From: Elusimicrobiota bacterium
Lineage (GTDB): Bacteria; Elusimicrobiota; Elusimicrobia; F11
Assembly (NCBI GenBank): GCA_046153645.1
Contig: JBJXGI010000047.1
Coordinates: 1 to 11,441 of the forward strand
DNA length: 11,441 nucleotides
Direction: 5' to 3'
Positions 1 to 11,441 of the stretch are shown here, piece after piece; the stretch's first letter is position 1, and every line of letters begins with the position of its first letter. The notes under the pieces are model-generated. The model saw only the letters and a list, made by a program, of their open reading frames with translations. It did not search any database and was not told where the DNA came from. The position numbers were made by a program, and so were the translations under genes.

Positions 1-243
1 ACCATTTCGCATCTCAGATGCTCAAAGCTAAAGAAAAACTCTTTTCTTCTCTCGGTACAACTTGATTTCTACGACGCACGGCTTGATTCTTATTTGAGGC
101 TCATTCTTGGATTGGAATATGCTGACAATTGTGATTACTTAAGGAATGACAAAGACACACTAATCCTGACTAAACTAGCATGTGCCCTTAATTTGGTCAG
201 AAATATAATTACGCAGCTTGAGCGGCTAACTTGGCGGCGGTAA
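1..243 (+). CDS. Possible 3' end of a convergent gene (frame +1 open from the window edge, 80 codons)
   Basis: Frame +1 reads TISHLRCSKLKKNSFLLSVQLDFYDARLDSYLRLILGLEYADNCDYLRNDKDTLILTKLACALNLVRNIITQLERLTWRR to TAA at 241-243. An alternative is frame +3, ending at TGA 63-65. No recognisable homology. Confidence 0.25.
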   Translation, partial: TISHLRCSKLKKNSFLLSVQLDFYDARLDSYLRLILGLEYADNCDYLRNDKDTLILTKLACALNLVRNIITQLERLTWRR

Positions 244-3200
244 TCACAAAACCAAGGTTGTGAATAGGAAGATCAGGCAGATTATTCAGGAAATCTCGTA
301 AATTAATGTATTTAATGTCATATAAAAAGGGCGGCAACGATCCTGAAGAAGAAACTAAGCTTTGAAGCAATTCTTCCGAGAAAACAAAAAGGCCGTTATT
401 TCTTCTTTCATGAATGACCGTTTCTACTACTTGGGAATTAAGTCCCGCTTCATTCAAAAGGTTATCTCGAGTGATTAATTGCACGCGTTCGTAAATTGAT
501 TCCTGTTTAAGCATTTCTTCAAACTTTTCTTTTTCTTCTGGAGATGAGTCTATAATGAAATCAATTCGAATATTTAAATGTTTTCTTAAATAGGCTTCCC
601 AGAGAGGGATATCACTTGATTTGACCACCACCTGAATGGTATGAAGCTCATCACTTGACTGGGATTGAGAATAACCACTTGATATTTTTTCAGCCAATCG
701 TACAGCTTGAGCCGGCGTTTTCCCGGAATATTTTTCATCCCACACTCTATTTAGTTCTTCACTGGTCAATTTCCAATCGGCGGGAGTCAACTCAACGCGT
801 TCAGATTGATTGGTGTCTAATTTTTGACCTATGTTTTTTAAAACAACTTCCCCCAATATTTTTTTAATCGCTCCTACTTCTCGATCAACCAACCCCAAAT
901 CTTTCCCCGCCTGGTAAATATCGCTTTTTTCTCTTAAATTTTTGGACACCAGAGGTAACACGACGGTATCGGCTAATAGTTGAGTGGTACTTAAAACAAA
1001 CAAAACAAAGGCAACAGCTTGGACGGATGTGAAATTATGTGAGAAAAGAACGGAGAAAGAAGGAAGAAAAGAATACGTTGCAATGGATAAAGCCAACAAA
1101 CTAAGCGGGCCGGCCAAACGGATCGCGGCACGAATGAAAGTTGGTGCTTTATTAAAGTCAATGTGAAGAGAACTCCACAAGCTACTTTTCGGCCAATTTA
1201 TTTTTACTCCAAAAAAAGATCCCAATACAAATACCGCTATCATGTGCGCTACCTCTTCAACAGGTGTCACAGTAAAATACCGTAGCGCTCGAACCAATCT
1301 TGATTGAGACTGACTGATGGCGTGGGCAGAGATGGAATAACTAAAATTATTTTGAGGCCCCTCAGGAGGGGACCCACGAGAATTTCTTATTTTCCTCACT
1401 ATCAAAACAAGTGCGAAAATACCCAAACTGAGCGATATCAGGAGAATCCAACGAGATTTTTTGACCTCAGGCTTTTTTTCAATTTCAACATTTTCTTGTT
1501 CAATATGATCTGATATTTCCGTACCAGAAACAGAGTAGAATGTAGACTGAAATGGGATCGCAGTTGGAGACAGTTGATTTTTAAATTGCCCACCCGATAA
1601 ACTCACGTACTGGAAACCAAACAATTGGATGGCTCCTGATTGAAGTTGAACAACAATAGATCTTTCATCAACTGAATCTTGAACAAATACTTTACCCTTC
1701 GAAAAATTATATTTTGGCAAGTTATTTGCGTCTTCTTTAAAAACATGCTCAAAGTGACCGCCGTTTAAAAACCATTTTCCGTTTGCATCTCGAATGAAAA
1801 ACAAAAATAAGGTTGATCTTTTTTCAATCGACGAATATGCCAAAGTAATATGGTTTATATCACTAGACTTTCCGGAATCTGGAATAAGTATGAACTTTTG
1901 TTCATTTAAAAGAATTTTTTTGGCATCATTTTCTGAAAATTCAATTTTATGAACGCCGCCCAATACGCTATCGAACTTATACTGTGTTTCTTTGTTGGGA
2001 CCTTCTTCCTTCGGTTTTAAGTTTTTATTTCCTTGAACCTCGCCAGGAGTTGGTTGATCTTTTGGCGCCTGAGCGGGGATGGGGTTACCGCTCATCATAC
2101 CGACAATTAACCCCACGGCAAAAGCGGGCAATAAAAAACTCGTCAATTTAACCGGAAAAAGCTCAAGTGGGTCAGAAGGTTTAAGACGATAAATTCTTAA
2201 GTTTGGGTTCTTTTTAATATCTCCTTCTTTATAATCTAAATCGTAATGGCCGTTTTTAATATCTAAATATTCAAGTGCTTTTTGTATATCAGAAGCGTCG
2301 TTTTTCCCATCAAATTCAACGCGAATAATTTTCGCACCCAATGAAATGTACAACTCTTTTAATTGATAATATTTTTTTTGATCAAGAAAATATTTTTTTA
2401 GTTTATCTTTCGTGAGATTTCTTTGAGAAAGAGACTTAATAAATTGATAAACCAAAGCCATTACTAAAACGATTAGGGAAATTAACCCAAGAACTAAAAA
2501 CACTTGAGATGCAGACAGAGAAATATTTTTAATAAGAGGAGTGGTTACAATCAACCAAGTCGCGATAAAAAAAGAAAGCGCACCCACCAAAACAACAAAA
2601 ACCTCATTTGTTTTTCGAAAAGGAACAGATACCAACTTAACATTGATCACACCAATTTTTTTACGAACCACGGCTGTTTCAAATATTTCAATTCTCCAAT
2701 TTGAATTACTGTTGAACTGAGGAGCTTTTCTCTTTAATTCGCCAAAAAATCCTTCAAAATCTCTAAGAACTTCGTCATAAGTGAACAATCGATTATTTAT
2801 AGTCAAATAAAGGGCAGTGCCGTCTTCTGAGATTTGATCGAAAATTTTCTGAACCACTTCACCAAACCACAAATTATTTTTTGGTCGATTGTATCGGTTT
2901 GCCAGCCAATAACCGATCATCCCAAACACCAGAGGAATAATAAAAACAATAAAATAAGAAATTAATTTCACTAACAATGGCGAAACATAAAAAGAAGTTG
3001 ATTCATGATAACCAAAAGCCCCTGAAGCTATAGAGGGAGTGAGCGCGACTATAATAAAGGAAATAACCGCCAGCGCCCATTCTTTTAACGTGGGCATGAA
3101 GCGAATTTTTCTTAAAGCATCGACATGAGTAATTTTCTCATGATCAACTGTGGTTGTAACAGTTGTTCCATCTGGCTCGGTGAGAATGGCACTTTGGCCG

Positions 3201-4942
3201 TTAACTTCAATTTCTGTCCCAGGAGGTATCACCGGAAGTTGTGCCATTGATTGAGCGGCATCCCCTCCCCTCACCGTTGTTTCTCCGGCAACAATTTTGG
3301 CTACCGCGTCTGGCTCAGGCATAACGCGCGGCGTTATAAATAATTTTTCTCCTTCAAATAATTTATCGAGTGGTGTTTTTTCTTGAGTGAAAACGGAAAG
3401 GTAACCGCTTCCTGATTCGTCATCTACTTTTGTGATTTTGGGTGTAAATAAAATAGTCGAAGCCCCGGCTTCCTTTAAAATCTGGCTCATACCTTCAGAA
3501 TGAAACCCTCCAGCCACAAGAACAGCAACATTGGCTTTTGATTTATCCATGGCAGACAATAAATTTTCCGCCATCGCTTGGTCTCGTTTTAAGGCTTCTT
3601 GATAAAAAGATTCAAAAGAACGAAGGAAAGCCTCGGATTTAATAGTTGCCTTTTGATATTCGTCCCACTCCTGCGAAGACAAAGAAAAGTTCACTAATTT
3701 ATTCATCAAATAAAGTTGTTTACTTTTTTGTATGAGCTTTTTCTCTTCTTTGGTTTGAAGCAATTGACTGTAGATATTTTCTTCTAAAGCGGAAACTTCA
3801 CCCAACATTTTTTCGACATTGATTTGATCACTCATCAATACATATTGAATATAAGATGCCATTGCTTTATAAGAAGAAAAATTAACCGAATGTTTCTGAC
3901 AAAGCGATTTTAATGATTCGTAAAAGTCGCCTTGCCTTATATTTCCCAATCTAAAAGCCAAACTTTCATTCACCAAGCCCTGCATTTCTTTTTTTGAAAG
4001 TTTTTCAACCAACCGAGATAACAATTGTGCGCGTTCAGTTTCAACTTGTGGTAGATGTAGCGACTTCTCCAGATGAAGTGCCGCCAAAAATATTTCAATG
4101 TCATGAGAATAGTGTGATTTAGATTGTTTCGATAAAAATTCTACGTAAGGCCCCCATGACAACTGGTTATCTCTGTAACTTTGAATGGTTCGATCAAAAT
4201 TTAAAAGGGCCGGACTAAAAACCGTCTTTTTCTCAAGCTCGACATCTTTTTTCATGTCACTTAATTTTTCTTTGGCCTGTTCTATCAAAGGTACTGATTC
4301 CTGATAGGCAGCAATATTGGCTTTATAATAAGAAGAATGATCCACACCCTCATAAACCGGAAGCTTCGAAGTGGTTGTTAACGCAGTGTAAACCGCTCCA
4401 GAAACTTTTTTCTCTCGCAATAAATAATCAGCTGTTGCTTTGACAGAAGATTGGGGACTGTAGTTTTGAAACATGGAAAAATCCATAGAGCCAAAAGCTC
4501 CCTCAAGAGCAACCAAGTCAACTTTCTTTTGTTTTATTAGTTCTTGAATTGTTTTACTGATATTTTCTTGAGCTTCGGGGTTTAAGTGAACATCTTGAAT
4601 TTGAATAATTGTTTTGGTGCTTAATTTATTGAGAGGTTTTTCAATTTTCCTCACACTCCCATAAGAAAAAGGAAGCGCTTCTAAAATTGAGGAAAAATGT
4701 TCTTTTTCGGTTGGCAGAACATTTTGATAAAGATATTGAGATAAATTTCTTGATGGTTGAATTTGTGGCAATTCTCTTGGAAGAGAAGCCAACAGAATAT
4801 TTGAATGAGAAATTTGAGCTTGATTAGCTATTCGTTTTCGATCTTTCCAAAATGTAGTTTCAGGTGTGTGTGCCCAAAGAATATTTGTCGAAAAATAAAT
4901 AAAAGTTATAAATAAAGAAAATGGTTTTAATTGATTTAACAT
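209..4942 (-). CDS. Giant (1577 aa) secreted/multi-pass membrane protein: signal peptide, EreA/ChaN/TIKI-like N-terminal domain, TM modules, M50-like module, Ala-rich C-terminal tail
   Basis: Uninterrupted 4.7 kb ORF. ATG at 4942-4940 with an in-frame TAG just upstream (4954-4952), so the start is well bounded; TAA at 211-209. Hydrophobic N-terminus and about 10 further hydrophobic segments. Confidence 0.93.
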   Translation of the reverse strand: MLNQLKPFSLFITFIYFSTNILWAHTPETTFWKDRKRIANQAQISHSNILLASLPRELPQIQPSRNLSQYLYQNVLPTEKEHFSSILEALPFSYGSVRKIEKPLNKLSTKTIIQIQDVHLNPEAQENISKTIQELIKQKKVDLVALEGAFGSMDFSMFQNYSPQSSVKATADYLLREKKVSGAVYTALTTTSKLPVYEGVDHSSYYKANIAAYQESVPLIEQAKEKLSDMKKDVELEKKTVFSPALLNFDRTIQSYRDNQLSWGPYVEFLSKQSKSHYSHDIEIFLAALHLEKSLHLPQVETERAQLLSRLVEKLSKKEMQGLVNESLAFRLGNIRQGDFYESLKSLCQKHSVNFSSYKAMASYIQYVLMSDQINVEKMLGEVSALEENIYSQLLQTKEEKKLIQKSKQLYLMNKLVNFSLSSQEWDEYQKATIKSEAFLRSFESFYQEALKRDQAMAENLLSAMDKSKANVAVLVAGGFHSEGMSQILKEAGASTILFTPKITKVDDESGSGYLSVFTQEKTPLDKLFEGEKLFITPRVMPEPDAVAKIVAGETTVRGGDAAQSMAQLPVIPPGTEIEVNGQSAILTEPDGTTVTTTVDHEKITHVDALRKIRFMPTLKEWALAVISFIIVALTPSIASGAFGYHESTSFYVSPLLVKLISYFIVFIIPLVFGMIGYWLANRYNRPKNNLWFGEVVQKIFDQISEDGTALYLTINNRLFTYDEVLRDFEGFFGELKRKAPQFNSNSNWRIEIFETAVVRKKIGVINVKLVSVPFRKTNEVFVVLVGALSFFIATWLIVTTPLIKNISLSASQVFLVLGLISLIVLVMALVYQFIKSLSQRNLTKDKLKKYFLDQKKYYQLKELYISLGAKIIRVEFDGKNDASDIQKALEYLDIKNGHYDLDYKEGDIKKNPNLRIYRLKPSDPLELFPVKLTSFLLPAFAVGLIVGMMSGNPIPAQAPKDQPTPGEVQGNKNLKPKEEGPNKETQYKFDSVLGGVHKIEFSENDAKKILLNEQKFILIPDSGKSSDINHITLAYSSIEKRSTLFLFFIRDANGKWFLNGGHFEHVFKEDANNLPKYNFSKGKVFVQDSVDERSIVVQLQSGAIQLFGFQYVSLSGGQFKNQLSPTAIPFQSTFYSVSGTEISDHIEQENVEIEKKPEVKKSRWILLISLSLGIFALVLIVRKIRNSRGSPPEGPQNNFSYSISAHAISQSQSRLVRALRYFTVTPVEEVAHMIAVFVLGSFFGVKINWPKSSLWSSLHIDFNKAPTFIRAAIRLAGPLSLLALSIATYSFLPSFSVLFSHNFTSVQAVAFVLFVLSTTQLLADTVVLPLVSKNLREKSDIYQAGKDLGLVDREVGAIKKILGEVVLKNIGQKLDTNQSERVELTPADWKLTSEELNRVWDEKYSGKTPAQAVRLAEKISSGYSQSQSSDELHTIQVVVKSSDIPLWEAYLRKHLNIRIDFIIDSSPEEKEKFEEMLKQESIYERVQLITRDNLLNEAGLNSQVVETVIHERRNNGLFVFSEELLQSLVSSSGSLPPFLYDIKYINLRDFLNNLPDLPIHNLGFVITAAKLAAQAA
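905..1290 (-). other. Peptidase M50 (site-2 protease)-like TM module with variant EExxH motif
   Basis: VEEVAH at the start of a TM helix (1244-1261), IRLAGPL (1103-1123), then TM helices, VLP and SD (Asp codon 920-922). Same order as HExxH...AGP...NxxPxxxxDG in the M50 family. Confidence 0.6.
3430..4612 (-). other. EreA/ChaN/TIKI(TraB)-superfamily-like domain with a large helical insertion
   Basis: Motifs in the expected order: IIQIQDVH (H119), DLVALEG (E147), RDQAMAENL (R453/D454), AVLVAGGFH (H481). These match the GExH / hhhE / R[DN]xxM / hhhGxxH pattern of this superfamily. Recognised by eye only. Confidence 0.6.
4871..4942 (-). other. N-terminal Sec-type signal peptide (MLNQLKPFSLFITFIYFSTNILWA|HTPE)
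   Basis: Lys-containing n-region, hydrophobic core, possible L-W-A cleavage site, followed by a long soluble region. Confidence 0.6.
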
Positions 4943-4960
4943 ACTTTCATGCTAGTGAAA

Positions 4961-4982
4961 GCACATTAAAATCGCATTAAAA
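4961..4982. repeat. 11-bp tandem direct repeat in the intergenic region
   Basis: GCACATTAAAA (4961-4971) followed by TCGCATTAAAA (4972-4982); shared core CATTAAAA one helical turn apart. Confidence 0.6.
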
Positions 4983-4993
4983 AGTTGCAACAA
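4965..4993 (-). promoter_or_regulatory. Possible sigma70-type promoter for the 1577-aa gene
   Basis: Minus strand TTGTTG (4993-4988), 17 bp spacer, TTTAAT (4970-4965), 22 nt upstream of the ATG. The AT-rich context makes a chance match plausible. Confidence 0.3.
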
Positions 4994-5016
4994 ACTTGTA
5001 AATTTTTTTGCCCCTT

Positions 5017-8000
5017 CTAAGCATGGGTCGCCGTCAAAAGAGCAATTCTAATTTGATCGAAAGTCATCCCTTGATCTACTTTTATGGCCACTAATCCCTT
5101 CATAAGTTGTGCCAACAAAAGCACTTGGACCACAGTATCACCATACTCTTCATAGAAACGATCACTTATTTCAAATGCCCCTTGAGCCGCAATAGAGAAG
5201 CGCATAAATTGCTGAGCTTTAAGCGCGGCCGCGAAAGAATCAACAATAAACACTCGCTCTTTTCCTTCTTCTTTGAAGAAAGCTTGACCATTAACAGGAC
5301 TTATAAATTTAATTCTATTAATAACTTTATCTCCTGATTTCTGACGAAGTTCCTGTAGTAGTATTTGTTTCAAATCCTCTGAAGCAGGGTTTGGAATAGC
5401 CAACAAACTATCTTCTGATTCTCCAGACATGTGGGACAAAGTTTCAACCATAATATCTATCGCGGGTTTTACATGCGCTTCTTCAGAAACAAATAAATCA
5501 CCAATAGCTAAATTTCCATTTCCAAGGAACGTTTTTAAAGGTTTAAAAAGATGAGACCGCTGAGAAGAACCACTATGACTGCGCGGTTTACTGGAAACGC
5601 CCAATTTCCCAAAGCGAGCCCACAAATCTTTTTTGCTGGCCCATGTTTCATCATCCCCACCAAAGAAGGTAGAAAATAGTATATGTGAAATTTTGGCTTC
5701 TTTATCTGTTCTAAACTCAATTCCTTCCTCAACAACCACTTTTTTACCATCTACAAAAACTTCTACCTTTCCATCTTTTTTGCCCACCGTATTGAGCGTC
5801 ACAATTTGTTCAATTTTATATTTCTGACCGGGCTTAAATGTCCAGCTTCCACGGCCAATAGATTTGCCATAACTCTTCTCTTTGGAATCTGGATCAAACA
5901 CATATAAATACAATTCGCCCTCTCCATTGGCCCGCCAATGAAGCCGCGTTGAAAAACTATTGGGAGCGCGTTGCCCTCCGCTGGCGGTTTTCCCACCAAA
6001 AAGACCTGGCAACTTCCCCCCTTTAACAAAATCAAAACCTTCTTGGAATTCAACCTCATAGGTTAAATACATTTGATCGGCTTCGGGAACTTGCATATAA
6101 AATACAGTCCCACCCATGGGCCCTTTTTTCTTTTCTGCAAAAGAAGGATCAACAGATCCTTTCGGGTATTTAATCTCAAGAACTTTCGAATTTGGATCGC
6201 GCGGATCAGCTATCACTTTCACGTTTTCTTTTCCATCAAATGCGCGTTTAGGATCAACACTGAGTGATTTTTTCCAGTCATCTGTAATTTCGAATGGTTT
6301 GAGTGAATCTTTAAAACCATCTCCCGGGTTTACAGCGGGTTCTGAGCCCTTTTCCTTTGTTTCTTTCACAACAGTTAAAACCTCAGCCGCCTTTCTCCCC
6401 AACTCAGTACCTTTCTTTTTTTCACTCAATTCTTGTAGATCTTTTTTAAGAGTCTCAATAAATTCTTTCGAAATATTTTTATTTACTCCTGAGTCAAAAG
6501 CCAACTTGGTCGTGTCGAGAGCTCTCAGTCGCAAGGTATCAAAGGGCCAATTCTTCCAAGCATTTTGTAATTCTTTTATCAGTTTTTCAGCGGCAGCCTG
6601 GTTAACGACTGATTTATTTTTATTGATCTCTGTCAGTAATTTTTCCATTTTTTCTAACACAGGTTTACGAGCGCCATCAAAAGTAGCTTTTGATAATTCT
6701 TCTGCCACAGCAGTCACTTTTTTATCAGTTTCAGAGGGCATTTTCGCCGCTGCCTTAGGTTGCCCCAAAGGTGTTTTGGGAACTTGAGTAAAACCCAAAG
6801 ATGATATTCCCAAAATAGCAATGACCGCCAAAAGAAGGGTTTTAAATCTCCGTGAAAAACCTGGTGAACGCGTCAACGGATTGGCTCCCAGTTCGCCATT
6901 TGGCCCCCAACGGAAAAATTTGAAATAATTATTAATGAAGTGCGCTGTTATACCAGAAAGCTGCCCTCCTATATAAGAAAACACACTTAAACCAACGAGG
7001 AACAAAACGGAGGGAGAAGTGCTCACCCATAACTGATAACCTATCAACCCAACAAAATAAGTGCTCACAAACCCCAAAACGGTGAAGAAAGTAAAAGCTC
7101 CATGACGCTCGCCAAGATAACGATCTAAATAATCTGATTGAGCTCCTTCTTCCAAAAAGAGGTGTTGATAGGCTGGGTTTGTTAAAAGCGGAATATGCGT
7201 TTTTCTAAATGAGGAGAAAATAAAATAAGATAAAAATATCGACACAAAAATAGAAACAAAGAAATATCCCATATGCAGAGGGTGCCCTAACGGTAATACC
7301 GCTAATAATAATGGCAAAGTGATTAATGCGTAGAACTTTTGTTCTTTGAGCGCATTTTTAATTTCTTTACCTACCAATGAAAATTCCATTTTCTTCAGTG
7401 CCTGAGGGTTCAGGTAAAAACCATTAGGCAACAATTCTTCACCATCTAATTTCATAGCTATGTGACGACCCTCAATAAATTTTATTTTAACAGCGCTAGC
7501 CAGGTAATTAATTTTATGACTTTTATTTAACTGTCCAAAAACAACGTCTAAATAATGTCGAATGGATTCTCTCCGCTTATGTTTTTGGTTGTCCCTAGCA
7601 ATATCTAACATTGAAGCGTAAGTTAACCTTCCATACTGTGATGCCCCATCTGTTACTTGGCCCATCTTTTTTTCTAGCGTCCCTTTTTTCCCAATTGAAA
7701 TATCAACCGGCATGACTTCAATTTTATTTTCAGCGGCATTATCATTAATTCGGACAAGAAAAATATCAGGGTGTTTCACATGTGAATTATTTTTTTTCTC
7801 TTCTGATATTGCGTCATCAAGAAAAACAACCACCACATCAGGAGAACTCAAAAACTCCAACAAATATTGAGTATTTTCACTGGGTTGAGAGCGGTCTCGT
7901 AAATATTTCAACGTTTTGATTGAGTTCTTCCTTAACTTCTTTAGATAATTTTTATTAGTTATCTTCTGCTTAAATTCAAAAGTAAAGGGTTCAAAGAGAT

Positions 8001-11000
8001 TTTTGATAGTTGTCTCAAAGTTTTTCCAGCTAATGCCAAATCTTTGAGGAATAAATTTTTTCGGAGTCAGCACCTGTGCCCCTTGAAGCAGAATCGAGGC
8101 TGATTTTTCTTTCGAATCAGAGAACACGACCAAAAAACGACGGAGAATTTGTCCCAAACGACCACTCACATAGGCACGTATCAAAGAAAACGTAAACGAA
8201 TTTTTACGATAACCAAACTTCTCATCAATACTTTTTTTCGTTTGAAAAAACCCCAGTCCAAAACGACCCGCTAAATAAGCCGCATTCACAGCCATAACCA
8301 TCCTTGTCGATTCAATCACAGAATCGTCATGATCCGCAGATATTCCTTCCAATTGAGCTGCGAACCGGCGCGCCAAAGTCAAACGCCAAACATTCTCAGA
8401 ATCAAAACCACTCATAAGATCCCGTTGAAGTGGCCCAAGGTTTTCCACGACAGTATCGATATGCCGCTGATATTTTTCATCGTACTTAATTCGCTTATCA
8501 ACATCTTTTGAGGTATCCTTTAAAGAATTGGTGCCAGAATCATCATCACCCGTTTCTTGAGAGGCAATCACAAAATCAAAACCAGAAACGTTCTTCGGTT
8601 CTGATTGTAACGCGGAAGGATTAAGTAAGTAACTTTGAATGAGCTGATCAGTTGGATATTGCTCACTAGCCAATGCTAAAAGAAAATTTTCCCAACGTGC
8701 CCCCAATGCTTCTTCCATGTCGTCATGATCTCCATTAACAAATGCTTTTAATAATGCGTCTAAACCCACCTGGTTCACCAGCGCCGCAACTGAATGGACA
8801 TTTTTAGGGAGAGGATGGTTCACACCAAAAGAAGAGAATGCCTTTAAAACCTCATCGGGGCTAAAATCATTCATTCCAGCGTTTTCCATCTGAATACGAG
8901 TTGACAAATAGGCCACAACGGCATCATGAAACGCTTTGTCAACAAATCCGCCTTGAGCTTCTATAAAAACAGAGAGTATAGATTGAGGACTAGATTTAGG
9001 AAAAACAATGACATTCAGAAGTCGATTAAAATAAGAAGAGGACATAGTCTTAGACTTATAAAATGTGGGAAAACTAACTTGGAAACCACCATGTTTATCA
9101 AAAAAAGACTCAACCATTCTACTAACGGTCGGATCAGGGTTGCTTCGTTTAGCGTCTGTCCCTTCAAGCTCTTCTTTTTGTAGAAGTAGTAAAGATGAAA
9201 AATCTATTTTATTTTCATCACCGTCCATTGAAAGCAAATGAATAATTTCGTCAACGGAAACTCTGTCGATTCGATAATCGTATTGAACACCATCATGCTT
9301 ATTCAGAGCTGTCCATCCTGCCACAATTATTGCTTCGTATTTTTTTCGTAACAATTCCATCTCAGCTTTTTCTGCTTCTTTTGCTTGCGTATGAAATTCT
9401 TTTGCGTAATATTTAATTTTTGCTTGCCGATCTGCTGGTTTCATTTCATTATTAAGACCTTCATCTTTACCGTTCGCCCAATTTTTTAAAGTTTCTCCCA
9501 ACGGTTTAAGAGTAGTTTCAGAAATAAGACTATTGTCTACCGCAAATTTTCGCCACGATAATAATTCGTTTTTTTCATGAACGGCTTTGAAGTGGTTTCG
9601 CGCATAAACACACCAGGAATCTCGACCGGCATGGTCGGCATTAAAACGACGGTCGAGAATAACAAGAATGTTATTTTCGTCAACTTCCATAAAAGTATTT
9701 TTTGTAACCCAGACATGATCCTTTCTTCCTTTTAAAAATTTTCTGAAATCAAAATGACCGCCTTTATTGGGCGTCAGTCCACATTCTTTGCCAATGGCAG
9801 AGATCACTTCTTTAAATTTTCCTTCGTCATGAAAACGAGCATGAGCTGTATCTGTAAATTCGTCCAAACCGTTACTAGAAATAGTGAAGTCAGTTAAAGG
9901 AGGCGTGTTTTGTGAAATAAATCCCGCTCCGGTCAATGGCGCGACGCTCAAATCAACCACCGCACGGCGGTTACGAATGGTGTGGAGAAGCTGGTACAAC
10001 CAATAGCCCAAATACCCCGCCAATAGAGCACATAACAAAGTACTTATCCCACTGGGAAAAATGTTCCATGTCCATCTTTGAAAATTAATAAATAAAGCAG
10101 AACTTACTGCCGTCGAACTAACACCATAGAAGAATAAAGGTGGCGTGATTTGTAAAAGACCCTGAGGGTTGTGCGTGCGGCGATAAAAATGAATCAATAG
10201 AATCACGAGCATGGTTGTTAAAAGCGTTAAGCTGGTCACCAAGAGAGAATTTGAAACAAGAGCAGTCGCGATCGGTGGGAGTGAAAACCAGCGTTCGTTT
10301 TTAGAGGCATTACTTATATCTTCTATTGTTAGTGGTACTCGCCCAGCCCAGATGGGGTGAGGTTTTCTTGAAATAATACTCCTATATAAATCAATCCTTC
10401 TGGCCGACCCATAATGAGGAGAGCGGGATAAAATATTAAATGTTTTTTCATATCTTCTTTCGACTCCCCCAATCAGCTTTTTATTAACTCTGCCTCTAGT
10501 TACAATTTCACGAATCTGATCAATGTCTTGCAAAATATAAAGAGCTAAATCAGCCACACTATGACTTGGGAGTAAACGAAGGCTCTCCTTATCAAAAGGA
10601 GAGGATTCAAAATTTAAATTTTTGGGTAATTTATTCTTTACGCGGTCAACCCATTGGCTTAAAGAGGCTATTTCAGGAATGAGAAACTTCAATATTTTTT
10701 TTTGATGTTTCTTGCTATTACGATGTTGATCCGATGAAAAAATGTATTTATAAACAGAAATGACCAATAAAAAAGGTTTGAGTATATAAGGAACAAACCA
10801 AAAAGCCGGAACCAGAAAAGAAGGAAAATACCTCTGAAAGAACAACCGGACATCTTCGTTAAGAAGAATATTTTTCAAAAGAAAATGTTGAACGTCATGA
10901 TGCGGCGTAAGAAGGAAGAGACGATCTAACATTCGTAACCGGCCATTTCCCAAACGAGCAAAACTCCCATCAACAAGATGAGACTTCACCAGTAATTCAA

Positions 11001-11441
11001 TCTTCCTTGAATTTCCCCAATGAATGAAAGTTGAAGTTAAAATTGGATCCATCTTAATTTTTTCTGAAAAAACAACTTGAGAAATTTTGAAGTTAACCCA
11101 TTTCGCAAACAACCCCGTGAACAGATTCGCAAACGCAAGAAGACCGAACACAGAAGAAAAAATAACTCCTGGGACGACTCCGAATGACGACGAGAAAACC
11201 CGAGGTACTAATGCCATTACCACAAAGGACATTCCCCACCAAAGATGAGAATTAGGATTAAAAGGTTGAGATGCTCTTATCTCAATGTTAACACCACGAG
11301 TAGTAACGCCTGTTAAAAGTGGCGGGGTTTTCAAGATAGAAGAAACCTTGCCTCCCACATTGGTAGCCGTAACAATAACAAGCGCTGTTTTTAATGTAGC
11401 AGATGTTTTCCCTTTCATCATGATCAAAACCTGAACAAGGG
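5017..11441 (-). CDS. Giant (>=2140 aa, probably 5'-partial) multi-pass membrane protein with a PL14 polysaccharide lyase domain and repeated CPBP-like TM modules
   Basis: Uninterrupted 6.4 kb ORF ending at TAG 5019-5017. The listed start (TTG at 11427) is preceded in frame by L-V-Q-V with no stop up to the window edge, so the true start probably lies outside the window. Confidence 0.93.
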   Translation of the reverse strand, partial: LVQVLIMMKGKTSATLKTALVIVTATNVGGKVSSILKTPPLLTGVTTRGVNIEIRASQPFNPNSHLWWGMSFVVMALVPRVFSSSFGVVPGVIFSSVFGLLAFANLFTGLFAKWVNFKISQVVFSEKIKMDPILTSTFIHWGNSRKIELLVKSHLVDGSFARLGNGRLRMLDRLFLLTPHHDVQHFLLKNILLNEDVRLFFQRYFPSFLVPAFWFVPYILKPFLLVISVYKYIFSSDQHRNSKKHQKKILKFLIPEIASLSQWVDRVKNKLPKNLNFESSPFDKESLRLLPSHSVADLALYILQDIDQIREIVTRGRVNKKLIGGVERRYEKTFNILSRSPHYGSARRIDLYRSIISRKPHPIWAGRVPLTIEDISNASKNERWFSLPPIATALVSNSLLVTSLTLLTTMLVILLIHFYRRTHNPQGLLQITPPLFFYGVSSTAVSSALFINFQRWTWNIFPSGISTLLCALLAGYLGYWLYQLLHTIRNRRAVVDLSVAPLTGAGFISQNTPPLTDFTISSNGLDEFTDTAHARFHDEGKFKEVISAIGKECGLTPNKGGHFDFRKFLKGRKDHVWVTKNTFMEVDENNILVILDRRFNADHAGRDSWCVYARNHFKAVHEKNELLSWRKFAVDNSLISETTLKPLGETLKNWANGKDEGLNNEMKPADRQAKIKYYAKEFHTQAKEAEKAEMELLRKKYEAIIVAGWTALNKHDGVQYDYRIDRVSVDEIIHLLSMDGDENKIDFSSLLLLQKEELEGTDAKRSNPDPTVSRMVESFFDKHGGFQVSFPTFYKSKTMSSSYFNRLLNVIVFPKSSPQSILSVFIEAQGGFVDKAFHDAVVAYLSTRIQMENAGMNDFSPDEVLKAFSSFGVNHPLPKNVHSVAALVNQVGLDALLKAFVNGDHDDMEEALGARWENFLLALASEQYPTDQLIQSYLLNPSALQSEPKNVSGFDFVIASQETGDDDSGTNSLKDTSKDVDKRIKYDEKYQRHIDTVVENLGPLQRDLMSGFDSENVWRLTLARRFAAQLEGISADHDDSVIESTRMVMAVNAAYLAGRFGLGFFQTKKSIDEKFGYRKNSFTFSLIRAYVSGRLGQILRRFLVVFSDSKEKSASILLQGAQVLTPKKFIPQRFGISWKNFETTIKNLFEPFTFEFKQKITNKNYLKKLRKNSIKTLKYLRDRSQPSENTQYLLEFLSSPDVVVVFLDDAISEEKKNNSHVKHPDIFLVRINDNAAENKIEVMPVDISIGKKGTLEKKMGQVTDGASQYGRLTYASMLDIARDNQKHKRRESIRHYLDVVFGQLNKSHKINYLASAVKIKFIEGRHIAMKLDGEELLPNGFYLNPQALKKMEFSLVGKEIKNALKEQKFYALITLPLLLAVLPLGHPLHMGYFFVSIFVSIFLSYFIFSSFRKTHIPLLTNPAYQHLFLEEGAQSDYLDRYLGERHGAFTFFTVLGFVSTYFVGLIGYQLWVSTSPSVLFLVGLSVFSYIGGQLSGITAHFINNYFKFFRWGPNGELGANPLTRSPGFSRRFKTLLLAVIAILGISSLGFTQVPKTPLGQPKAAAKMPSETDKKVTAVAEELSKATFDGARKPVLEKMEKLLTEINKNKSVVNQAAAEKLIKELQNAWKNWPFDTLRLRALDTTKLAFDSGVNKNISKEFIETLKKDLQELSEKKKGTELGRKAAEVLTVVKETKEKGSEPAVNPGDGFKDSLKPFEITDDWKKSLSVDPKRAFDGKENVKVIADPRDPNSKVLEIKYPKGSVDPSFAEKKKGPMGGTVFYMQVPEADQMYLTYEVEFQEGFDFVKGGKLPGLFGGKTASGGQRAPNSFSTRLHWRANGEGELYLYVFDPDSKEKSYGKSIGRGSWTFKPGQKYKIEQIVTLNTVGKKDGKVEVFVDGKKVVVEEGIEFRTDKEAKISHILFSTFFGGDDETWASKKDLWARFGKLGVSSKPRSHSGSSQRSHLFKPLKTFLGNGNLAIGDLFVSEEAHVKPAIDIMVETLSHMSGESEDSLLAIPNPASEDLKQILLQELRQKSGDKVINRIKFISPVNGQAFFKEEGKERVFIVDSFAAALKAQQFMRFSIAAQGAFEISDRFYEEYGDTVVQVLLLAQLMKGLVAIKVDQGMTFDQIRIALLTATHA
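5596..6230 (-). other. Polysaccharide lyase family 14 domain (alginate/glucuronan lyase-like beta-jelly roll) within the upstream giant CDS
   Basis: Ordered PL14 motifs: LEIKYPKGS, YLTYEVEF..GFDFVKGGKLPGLFGG (K at 6013-6015), FSTRLHWR (5932-5955), GELYLY (Tyr codons 5908-5910 and 5902-5904), GRGSWTF, LNTVGKKDG, FSTFFGG (5656-5676). Confidence 0.9.
6784..6858 (-). other. Internal signal-peptide-like segment (FSRRFKTLLLAVIAILGISSLGFT|Q) preceding the helical + PL14 cargo
   Basis: Basic n-region with an RR pair, about 13-residue hydrophobic core, small-residue c-region, then a Pro/Lys/Ala-rich linker. Confidence 0.55.
6871..7362 (-). repeat. TM module copy 2 (CPBP/Abi-like; NALKE / FRKTHIP / HFINN / PLT)
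   Basis: About 4 hydrophobic helices with motifs IKNALKEQKF, FRKTHIP (7189-7209), AHFINN (6928-6945), NPLT (6871-6882). Confidence 0.6.
7620..7850 (-). other. Possible PD-(D/E)xK restriction-endonuclease-fold segment
   Basis: HPDIFLV (Asp 7765-7767) ... VMPVDIS (Asp 7702-7704) ... EKKMGQ, in a Lys/Arg-rich soluble region. Confidence 0.4.
9931..10317 (-). repeat. TM module copy 1 (CPBP/Abi-like; NA.K.E / YRRTHNP / HTIRN / PLT)
   Basis: About 4 hydrophobic helices with motifs ISNASKNERWF, YRRTHNP (10165-10185), LHTIRN (9970-9987), APLT (9931-9942). Protein-level similarity to copy 2. Confidence 0.6.

Follow-up and report, generated by a model that had tools for sequence, protein, structure and literature searches.

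Two long genes fill a contig of an Elusimicrobiota bacterium, and they raise the question of whether their products act whole or are precursors that are cut into several proteins. The contig (JBJXGI010000047.1, positions 1 to 11,441, assembly GCA_046153645.1) was analysed over its whole length of 11,441 nucleotides, here called the window; it is the entire contig C39, in our numbering, of a 2.63-Mb genome. Its minus strand carries two tandem open reading frames (ORFs), gene A and then gene B, with a spacer of 74 bases between them. The original prediction, made from the letters alone, described giant self-processing polyproteins that carry enzymatic cargo. Our results place A and B in a family of modular membrane proteins that has expanded in this genome and whose members are probable precursors. 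Co-translational insertion of these chains into the producer's membrane, followed by cutting of the precursors into pieces, is the explanation that we favor, tentatively and at a little under an even chance.

An expanded family with constant ends and variable cargo

Hydrophobic bundles and soluble stretches alternate along both proteins, and this pattern bears out the predicted alternation of transmembrane bundles with soluble domains. Pfam placed only one domain above its cut-off, the polysaccharide lyase PL14 in A. B gave two sub-threshold matches, to ChaN/Tiki (PF04187, 3e-5, on its N-terminal head) and to M50 (0.027), and NCBIfam matched neither protein. Residues 1-540 of B recur in 49 ORFs of the genome. 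The family count of about 50 is approximate, since several fragments are one gene: 127-base overlaps of contig ends join family gene pieces (C49-C78, C15-C74, C17-C33 and C33-C56). With headless fragments added by hand, the family makes up about 14% of the genome. A was assigned to it through the common blocks and the alanine tail; three of its segments recur in the paralogue on C71 and one in that on C15. Chain lengths across the family run from 1.3 to 10 thousand amino acids (aa). A and B are long, as predicted, but both fall below the 5,000 and 10,000 aa thresholds by which published work defines giant proteins. One paralogue of 10,189 aa (C86:11315-41881) contains eight tandem five-helix blocks, each with HExxH, plus AAA and vWA domains.

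The family extends beyond this genome. Of 292 confirmed relatives, 79 loci were retained, and all of these come from Elusimicrobia/Elusimicrobiota or from Ca. Obscuribacterium, which we take to be a member of the phylum Elusimicrobiota. An alignment query succeeded in this locus search, while a single head sequence retrieved nothing; the database names of the sampled relatives are either hypothetical or taken from one cargo domain. The chains also end alike. Alanine is the last residue in 30/32 complete members of this genome longer than 1000 aa, compared with 91/1220 other ORFs, and in 29/37 and 21/32 members of two foreign sets. The tails of A and B had been described as similar. Both do have an amphipathic helix and a terminal Ala, but they are 15% identical and a profile of either one misses the other; the B tail gave no match in the PDB or Atlas.

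Between these constant parts the cargo varies. The Pfam scan, which took in 38 pieces of this genome's own members together with 59 of the 91 foreign members, revealed sigma-70, AAA, helicase, methyltransferase, kinase and sugar-metabolism domains along with a few secreted-type enzymes, and many members gave no match. No C39/S8 peptidase, SecA-DEAD or dockerin domain was found in A, B or the 38 own pieces, and one S8 domain was found among the 59 foreign members. Sigma-70 region 2/3/4 units lie between the CPBP-like membrane blocks (described below) in several members, including those on C31 and C71. The M50-like block of B adjoins an S8 protease in one foreign genome and helix-turn-helix repeats in another, so cargo is shuffled around common blocks, and a fixed, non-modular architecture of the paralogues is refuted. 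Since the recognizable cargo is mostly of cytoplasmic type and internal signal peptides are exceptional, the proposed roles in effector delivery or as surface enzymes fit the family poorly.

The cargo of A and B themselves is partly identifiable. The predicted PL14 lyase of A is well supported by its Pfam match and by similarity to solved lyases (alginate lyase 5GMT, 2e-26; vAL-1, 2.5e-10). A standalone PL14 protein with a lipobox-like N-terminus is encoded elsewhere in the genome (C16:4500-8500), where its neighbors are a fragment of a family tail and a gene resembling a transposase (labels by eye). A peptidase-like segment had also been proposed, which corresponds to residues 505-720 of A. 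It is unconfirmed: four residues are common with one paralogue, and the His/His/Glu/His set is possibly a metal site, but no further homologue was found. Homologue searches with this domain and with residues 955-1190 of B returned only the query itself or nothing. The nuclease-like call, probably made on A ~1195-1260, is likewise unconfirmed; the segment has neither a Pfam match nor a homologue.

Candidate enzymes: a Tiki-fold head and membrane blocks

To judge by its conservation, the N-terminal head of B, overlooked in the original prediction, is the best candidate enzyme of the family. Its five key residues (Table 1) span 400 aa and are invariant in 42/42 aligned heads (seven fragments were left out). 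A head model built from 39 paralogues (pLDDT 86.6) was used for a structural search, and the best five matches all belong to the Tiki superfamily: ChaN (Z 9.3, root-mean-square deviation 5.9, 180 residues aligned), HopBA1 (9.2), 2QGM (8.9), EreC (8.7) and Bcr135 (8.4). These scores barely exceed unrelated folds at Z 8.4, and RRSP reached only 6.0. The match of the head to PF04187 lies below the Pfam cut-off, Foldseek alone gave nothing below E 0.001 with the head model, and a PDB sequence search with heads, blocks and tails found nothing relevant. The Tiki protease RRSP has a site of two His, two Glu and an Arg (PMC6254334); the head site was equated with this layout from the sequence and spacing of its residues rather than from a residue-level superposition. 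According to the model, the Tiki superfamily's parallel beta-sheet core is present in the head, which is likely an active hydrolase, either protease or esterase. The heads resemble the known superfamily members (ChaN PF04187, EreA/Bcr135/136, RRSP and HopBA1) in fold and in an acid-His-Glu-Arg-His site, but differ in having Asp first, a helical insertion of about 300 residues and a fixed N-terminal place in an expanded family. The signal-like segment in front of the head and the WxxR motif that follows this segment are conserved unusually well for a signal peptide in B and its paralogues; together they may form a dedicated targeting signal.

The membrane blocks of the family are homologous to the CPBP/Rce1 proteases (PF02517), a relationship supported at the level of profiles. 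The pattern Glu..FxxxH..HxxxN/D occurs in 16/129 helix clusters of own members and 15/129 of foreign members, and in 0/311 others. Motif- and coordinate-based selection gave 102 aligned blocks with a mean identity of 12%, of which 87 are distinct and have both His. The 102 blocks retain the first Glu in 61 cases, the second Glu in 43, Arg in 15, the two His in 99 and 98, and Asn/Asp in 89; 52/102 have the full Glu/His/His/Asn-Asp set. In the CPBP literature the first Glu is catalytic and the second structural (PMC13692083; PMC11980579). PF02517 was matched by 14/77 blocks (E <=0.1), every other family by at most one block, and it appeared above cut-off within two giant ORFs. Run against 1.84 billion proteins, the block profile gave 56 matches, of which 19 were scanned; 47 of the 56 have the head and two are standalone Rce1-like proteins. 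In hhalign the block profile scored 95.7% with a canonical CPBP member (itself matched by a related profile), and matches to the profile occur in 43/401 genomes of the phylum. Iteration from single Pfam-matched blocks found no paralogues. The blocks have the same Glu, FxxxH and HxxxN/D, in a predicted four-helix core, as the glutamic intramembrane proteases MmRce1, the myxosortase MrtX and MroQ and as the non-catalytic CflP and Abx1. Known CPBP members, however, are small and standalone, whereas here bare cores recur between cargo, mostly without the second Glu and the Arg.

Two such modules had been predicted in A. FxxxH and HxxxN/D are indeed present in both, while motif 1 (EExxxR) is reduced to one Glu at most. 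Block 1 is found by the family profile (E 1.5e-8, with block 1 itself part of the profile) and also by a motif-seeded profile. Block 2 is absent from the listed matches of the family profile; its key residues, including Glu1366, are identical in one paralogue at 42% identity. An EE motif at A ~1428, likely the one meant in the original prediction, was rejected because the paralogue has no EE. Atlas look-ups for block 2 and the B tail gave no usable match.

The predicted M50-like module of B stands in part. Like the site-2 proteases (M50, PF02163), it has an xExxH helix, a GP motif and a distal Asp, but EExxH replaces HExxH, so that the first zinc His is absent, and the Pfam match is below cut-off. 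Of the GPxxN motif and the NxxPxxxxDG-like third-ligand motif, GP and Asp are retained; both Asn are kept in three orthologues and lost in the window copy. M50-type blocks with HExxH occur in three paralogues.

Proposed insertion and cutting weighed against other explanations

From this architecture and these residues we infer a route of insertion, cutting and release. While still being translated, the chains would pass into and through the inner membrane of the producing cell; cutting would follow and free the cargo domains. Four-helix CPBP-like blocks, which would start and end in the cytoplasm, may cut nearby linkers, and the cargo released in the cytoplasm would comprise sigma factors, ATPases and sugar enzymes. 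Exported cargo, which is rarer and includes the PL14 lyase of A, would be freed by signal peptidase I, and the Tiki head could act as an additional protease or esterase. RAPP/RGPP motifs may pace the insertion, and the Ala end might be a handle for a tail-recognizing protease; ClpXP, FtsH and Tsp prefer tails of the Ala type. Cutting of A and B would more likely occur in trans, because their own blocks are degenerate. Cutting into separate proteins is plausible in view of the shuffled architecture of the paralogues and the profile-level protease homology of the blocks.

R[GA]PP motifs exceed expectation in three sets of family members (8 occurrences where 1.2 were expected, 13 for 3.2 and 23 for 1.6, or 4- to 14-fold, with related copies that are not independent) and are depleted outside the family in this genome (2 against 5.5). 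RAPP and RGPP are strongly excluded bacterial tetrapeptides and strong ribosome-arrest motifs, as reported in a study whose main text does not mention Elusimicrobiota (PMC12992588). The family has the same tetrapeptides, often just past a membrane helix: 25/43 lie at most 44 residues downstream of one, and in 10/89 blocks the motif falls in the loop after FxxxH. The cases described in that study are found close to the C-terminal end of small leader proteins, whereas those of the family are internal in very long chains. The internal motifs may therein act as ribosome-arrest sites that pace insertion.

Internal signal-peptide-like segments had been proposed directly before soluble cargo. The segment at A 1529-1551, which ends in G-F-T rather than the classic A-x-A, does stand ahead of PL14, but the helix at B 929-957 is weak and family-wide enrichment was not seen. 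The S8 cargo of the foreign member also comes after a signal-like segment, and GH18, GH5, M23-like and SdiA-regulated cargo are not clearly preceded by one. Together with two negative enrichment tests (see below), this indicates that internal signal peptides are occasional and not the rule. Among bacteria, Bradyrhizobium fbcH offers a precedent for a signal peptide of this internal kind; our literature search returned none.

Several results weigh against insertion followed by cutting. Internal signal peptides were not enriched across the family, either with the matrix of Table 1 (6/13 against 10/15 controls) or by a rule-based version (p=0.33). Export of the head would be expected from the signal-like N-terminus, but the helices that come next are predicted to be cytoplasm-flanked and no extra helix lies between; this conflict holds in B and in members whose head runs directly into a block. 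The tail of A is predicted outside, with PL14, and that of B inside. No conserved cut site was identified. Canonical R[GA]PP is absent from A and B, which have look-alikes only, and 20/43 motifs lie at most nine residues before a helix, so R[GA]PP may be a structural cap. In the blocks, the protease-like character seen family-wide is weaker in the window: neither block of A matches PF02517 alone, and in block 1 the catalytic-Glu column is without a Glu (one lies off register); this block yielded a model of three long helices with a pTM of 0.44 and no Foldseek match. The first His of the M50-like block is Glu or Gln in 4/4 aligned copies (QExxH in the orthologues; three further loci gave no aligned row). 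The block profile matched neither the genome's own standalone CPBP nor the CPBP sequences of the PDB, and 50/102 blocks are without the full residue set. Cleavage and activity of the family proteins are predictions from the sequence.

It is conceivable, although we judge it unlikely, that the proteins are intact, membrane-anchored multi-enzyme scaffolds, whose blocks either serve without catalysis, as anchors or binding modules, or have other substrates to cut. CPBP proteins that retain both His can be non-catalytic scaffolds, as stated for CflP and Abx1 in PMC13692083, and the incomplete blocks of the family and the degenerate ones of the window would suit this role. Inner-membrane-anchored enzymes are also one surviving hypothesis for the giant proteins of Omnitrophota according to Nielsen and Lui (10.64898/2026.06.07.730766). 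However, more blocks retain the catalytic Glu than retain the Glu/Arg pair with a structural role, the blocks recur many times per chain, and sigma factors held between membrane blocks would be hard to use uncut.

Delivery in the manner of MARTX toxins appears improbable. Here the head and tail would be secretion signals, and the chain would enter the membrane of prey or host and be cut there into effectors. MARTX toxins and viral membrane polyproteins do have a constant frame, variable cargo and built-in protease or signal-peptidase cuts. The constant ends that enclose variable cargo across some 50 paralogues, the conserved signal-plus-WxxR and the topology conflict under a simple Sec model agree with such delivery. 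There are 11 matches to ATPases of type II secretion systems or pili, two of them (C85:89433-90521 and C23:16348-17169) at most 410 bases from a family gene, but the other 9/11 are not adjacent to family genes. Helices with Kyte-Doolittle values of up to 3.0 should stop in the producer's SecY, as strongly hydrophobic helices do, and motifs of the arrest type would suit co-translational insertion at home. Unlike MARTX toxins and viral polyproteins, the family is a bacterial chromosomal one without their repeats, cysteine protease domain or known secretion route. Predation has been proposed for Omnitrophota giants by West-Roberts et al. (10.1101/2023.11.21.568195), and the Tiki fold also occurs in effectors.

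That the family is a gene-capture platform, in which a regulated head and anchors gather fused and partly decayed domains with no dedicated processing and the signal-like segments are relics of the genes taken up, is very improbable: cargo is seldom common to members and often without homologues, PL14 is above cut-off in 1/12 genomes of the order, and broken members and insertion-sequence (IS) insertions occur, but the invariant head site, the retention of His/His/Asn at such low identity, the terminal Ala and intact frames of thousands of codons point to selection on the family.

The locus and the place of the family among known systems

Table 1. Features of the window with positions, strand and supporting remarks. 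Signal scores come from a crude home-made matrix, on which held-out signal peptides have a median of 5.5 and about half of all helices pass.
Feature	Positions	Strand	Remarks
Gene A	5017..11439	-	At least 2140 aa; 5' end missing at contig end, head not in view
A CPBP-like block 1 (380-490)	9970..10302	-	H423 or H417, H486, N490
A soluble domain (505-720)	9280..9927	-	H603, H621, E625, H683 common with one paralogue
A segment (~1195-1260)	7660..7857	-	Likely the nuclease-like call; unconfirmed
A CPBP-like block 2 (1365-1504)	6925..7347	-	E1366, H1415, H1500, N1504
A internal signal-peptide-like segment (1529-1551)	6787..6855	-	Score 7.5; predicted cut after T1551
A PL14 polysaccharide lyase cargo (1749-1943)	5611..6195	-	Pfam PF21294, 6e-61, 206 bits against cut-off 27
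A tail (1960-2140)	5020..5562	-	Amphipathic helix and Ala end; homologues in two other Elusimicrobiota family proteins
Direct-repeat element in spacer upstream of B	4965..5002	-	TTACA-like plus TTAA-N7-TTAA; ~11-base spacing
Gene B	209..4942	-	1577 aa; complete family member
B N-terminal signal-peptide-like segment, then family motif WxxR	4871..4942	-	Matrix score 4.5
B head, predicted Tiki/ChaN/EreA fold with long helical insertion	3323..4630	-	D117, H119, E147, R453, H481; alignment and model
B two membrane hairpins (623-674, 781-832)	2447..3076	-	Basic outer flanks; both ends predicted cytoplasmic from charge bias
B internal signal-like helix (929-957), weak	2072..2158	-	Matrix score 2.4
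B soluble cargo (958-1163)	1454..2071	-	Predicted outside from charge bias; no homologue among shorter proteins
B anchor helix (1164-1182), then basic residues and non-canonical RGSPP (1189)	1364..1453	-	Hydrophobicity, motif
B M50-like membrane block (1228-1341)	920..1261	-	Lacks the first zinc His; has EExxH, LAGP and a distal Asp; PF02163 0.027, below cut-off
B tail (~1365-1577)	212..850	-	Alpha/beta domain of no known family, amphipathic helix and Ala end; three paralogues in the genome
IS-like repeat end (3' end of transposase-like gene on C28)	1..124	.	Outside the system

The IS-like repeat end lies 85 bases downstream of B. Identical matches of 123-130 bases to positions 1-124 are present at the ends of C38, C6 and C91 and at C28:1191-1314, where the gene was labelled transposase-like by eye, and this repeat likely caused the contig break. 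The missing start of A was sought by overlaps of contig ends, with no result, and the contigs of four public DNA runs gave no extension. These runs come from one study and possibly from the source sample; their contigs match the window at 99% or more in 95/97 pieces, and none spans it. TTAA-N6/7-TTAA[GT] occurs upstream of 19/35 family genes and of 32/1071 others, the pattern itself having been drawn from family genes. The TTACA-like/TTAA direct repeats upstream of B and many family genes presumably resemble the operator boxes of OmpR-family regulators.

Elusimicrobiota are listed as rich in huge, uncharacterized proteins in PMC11573180. A family that combines a Tiki head, CPBP blocks and an Ala tail was not found described in the literature search, which covered sources other than subscription journals and bioRxiv supplements. 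Among the nearest counterparts are the giant proteins of Omnitrophota (Archaeovorin and Dockerin types), which are likewise long, span the membrane with many helices and carry a mixture of enzymatic cargo, and for which cleavage is also proposed. The original prediction knew of no described processing mechanism; one had been put forward by West-Roberts et al. (10.1101/2023.11.21.568195), in whose proposal C39/S8 domains cleave the Omnitrophota giants autocatalytically; neither cleavage nor CPBP is mentioned in the accessible text of the 2026 catalogue of Nielsen and Lui (10.64898/2026.06.07.730766), and CPBP and M50 have 0 occurrences in the main texts of both works. The Omnitrophota giants differ in using C39/S8 as the proposed proteases and in commonly having SecA domains, whereas the present family starts with a Tiki head, carries CPBP-like blocks in repeated copies and ends in Ala. 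They are also defined by a length of at least 10,000 aa, which A and B do not reach and the 10,189-aa paralogue does.

Whether giant bacterial membrane proteins act whole or cut, and by what they would be cut, is a question that published work states as open. The family has short members (1.3-2.5 thousand aa), its candidate catalytic residues can be named, and its 110-residue blocks are suited to expression on their own, which makes this question directly testable. If true, cores of intramembrane proteases that act in cis and are repeated in one chain, together with internal arrest motifs, would be new uses of known parts. A still broader view, which we regard as doubtful, is a general polyprotein system of Elusimicrobiota that would occupy about one seventh of the genome, with insertion checkpointed by arrest motifs and self-cutting by the Tiki head and the CPBP/M50 cores, in the producer or in prey. 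On the inside, such a system would release sigma factors, ATPases and enzymes, and on the outside it would release lyases.

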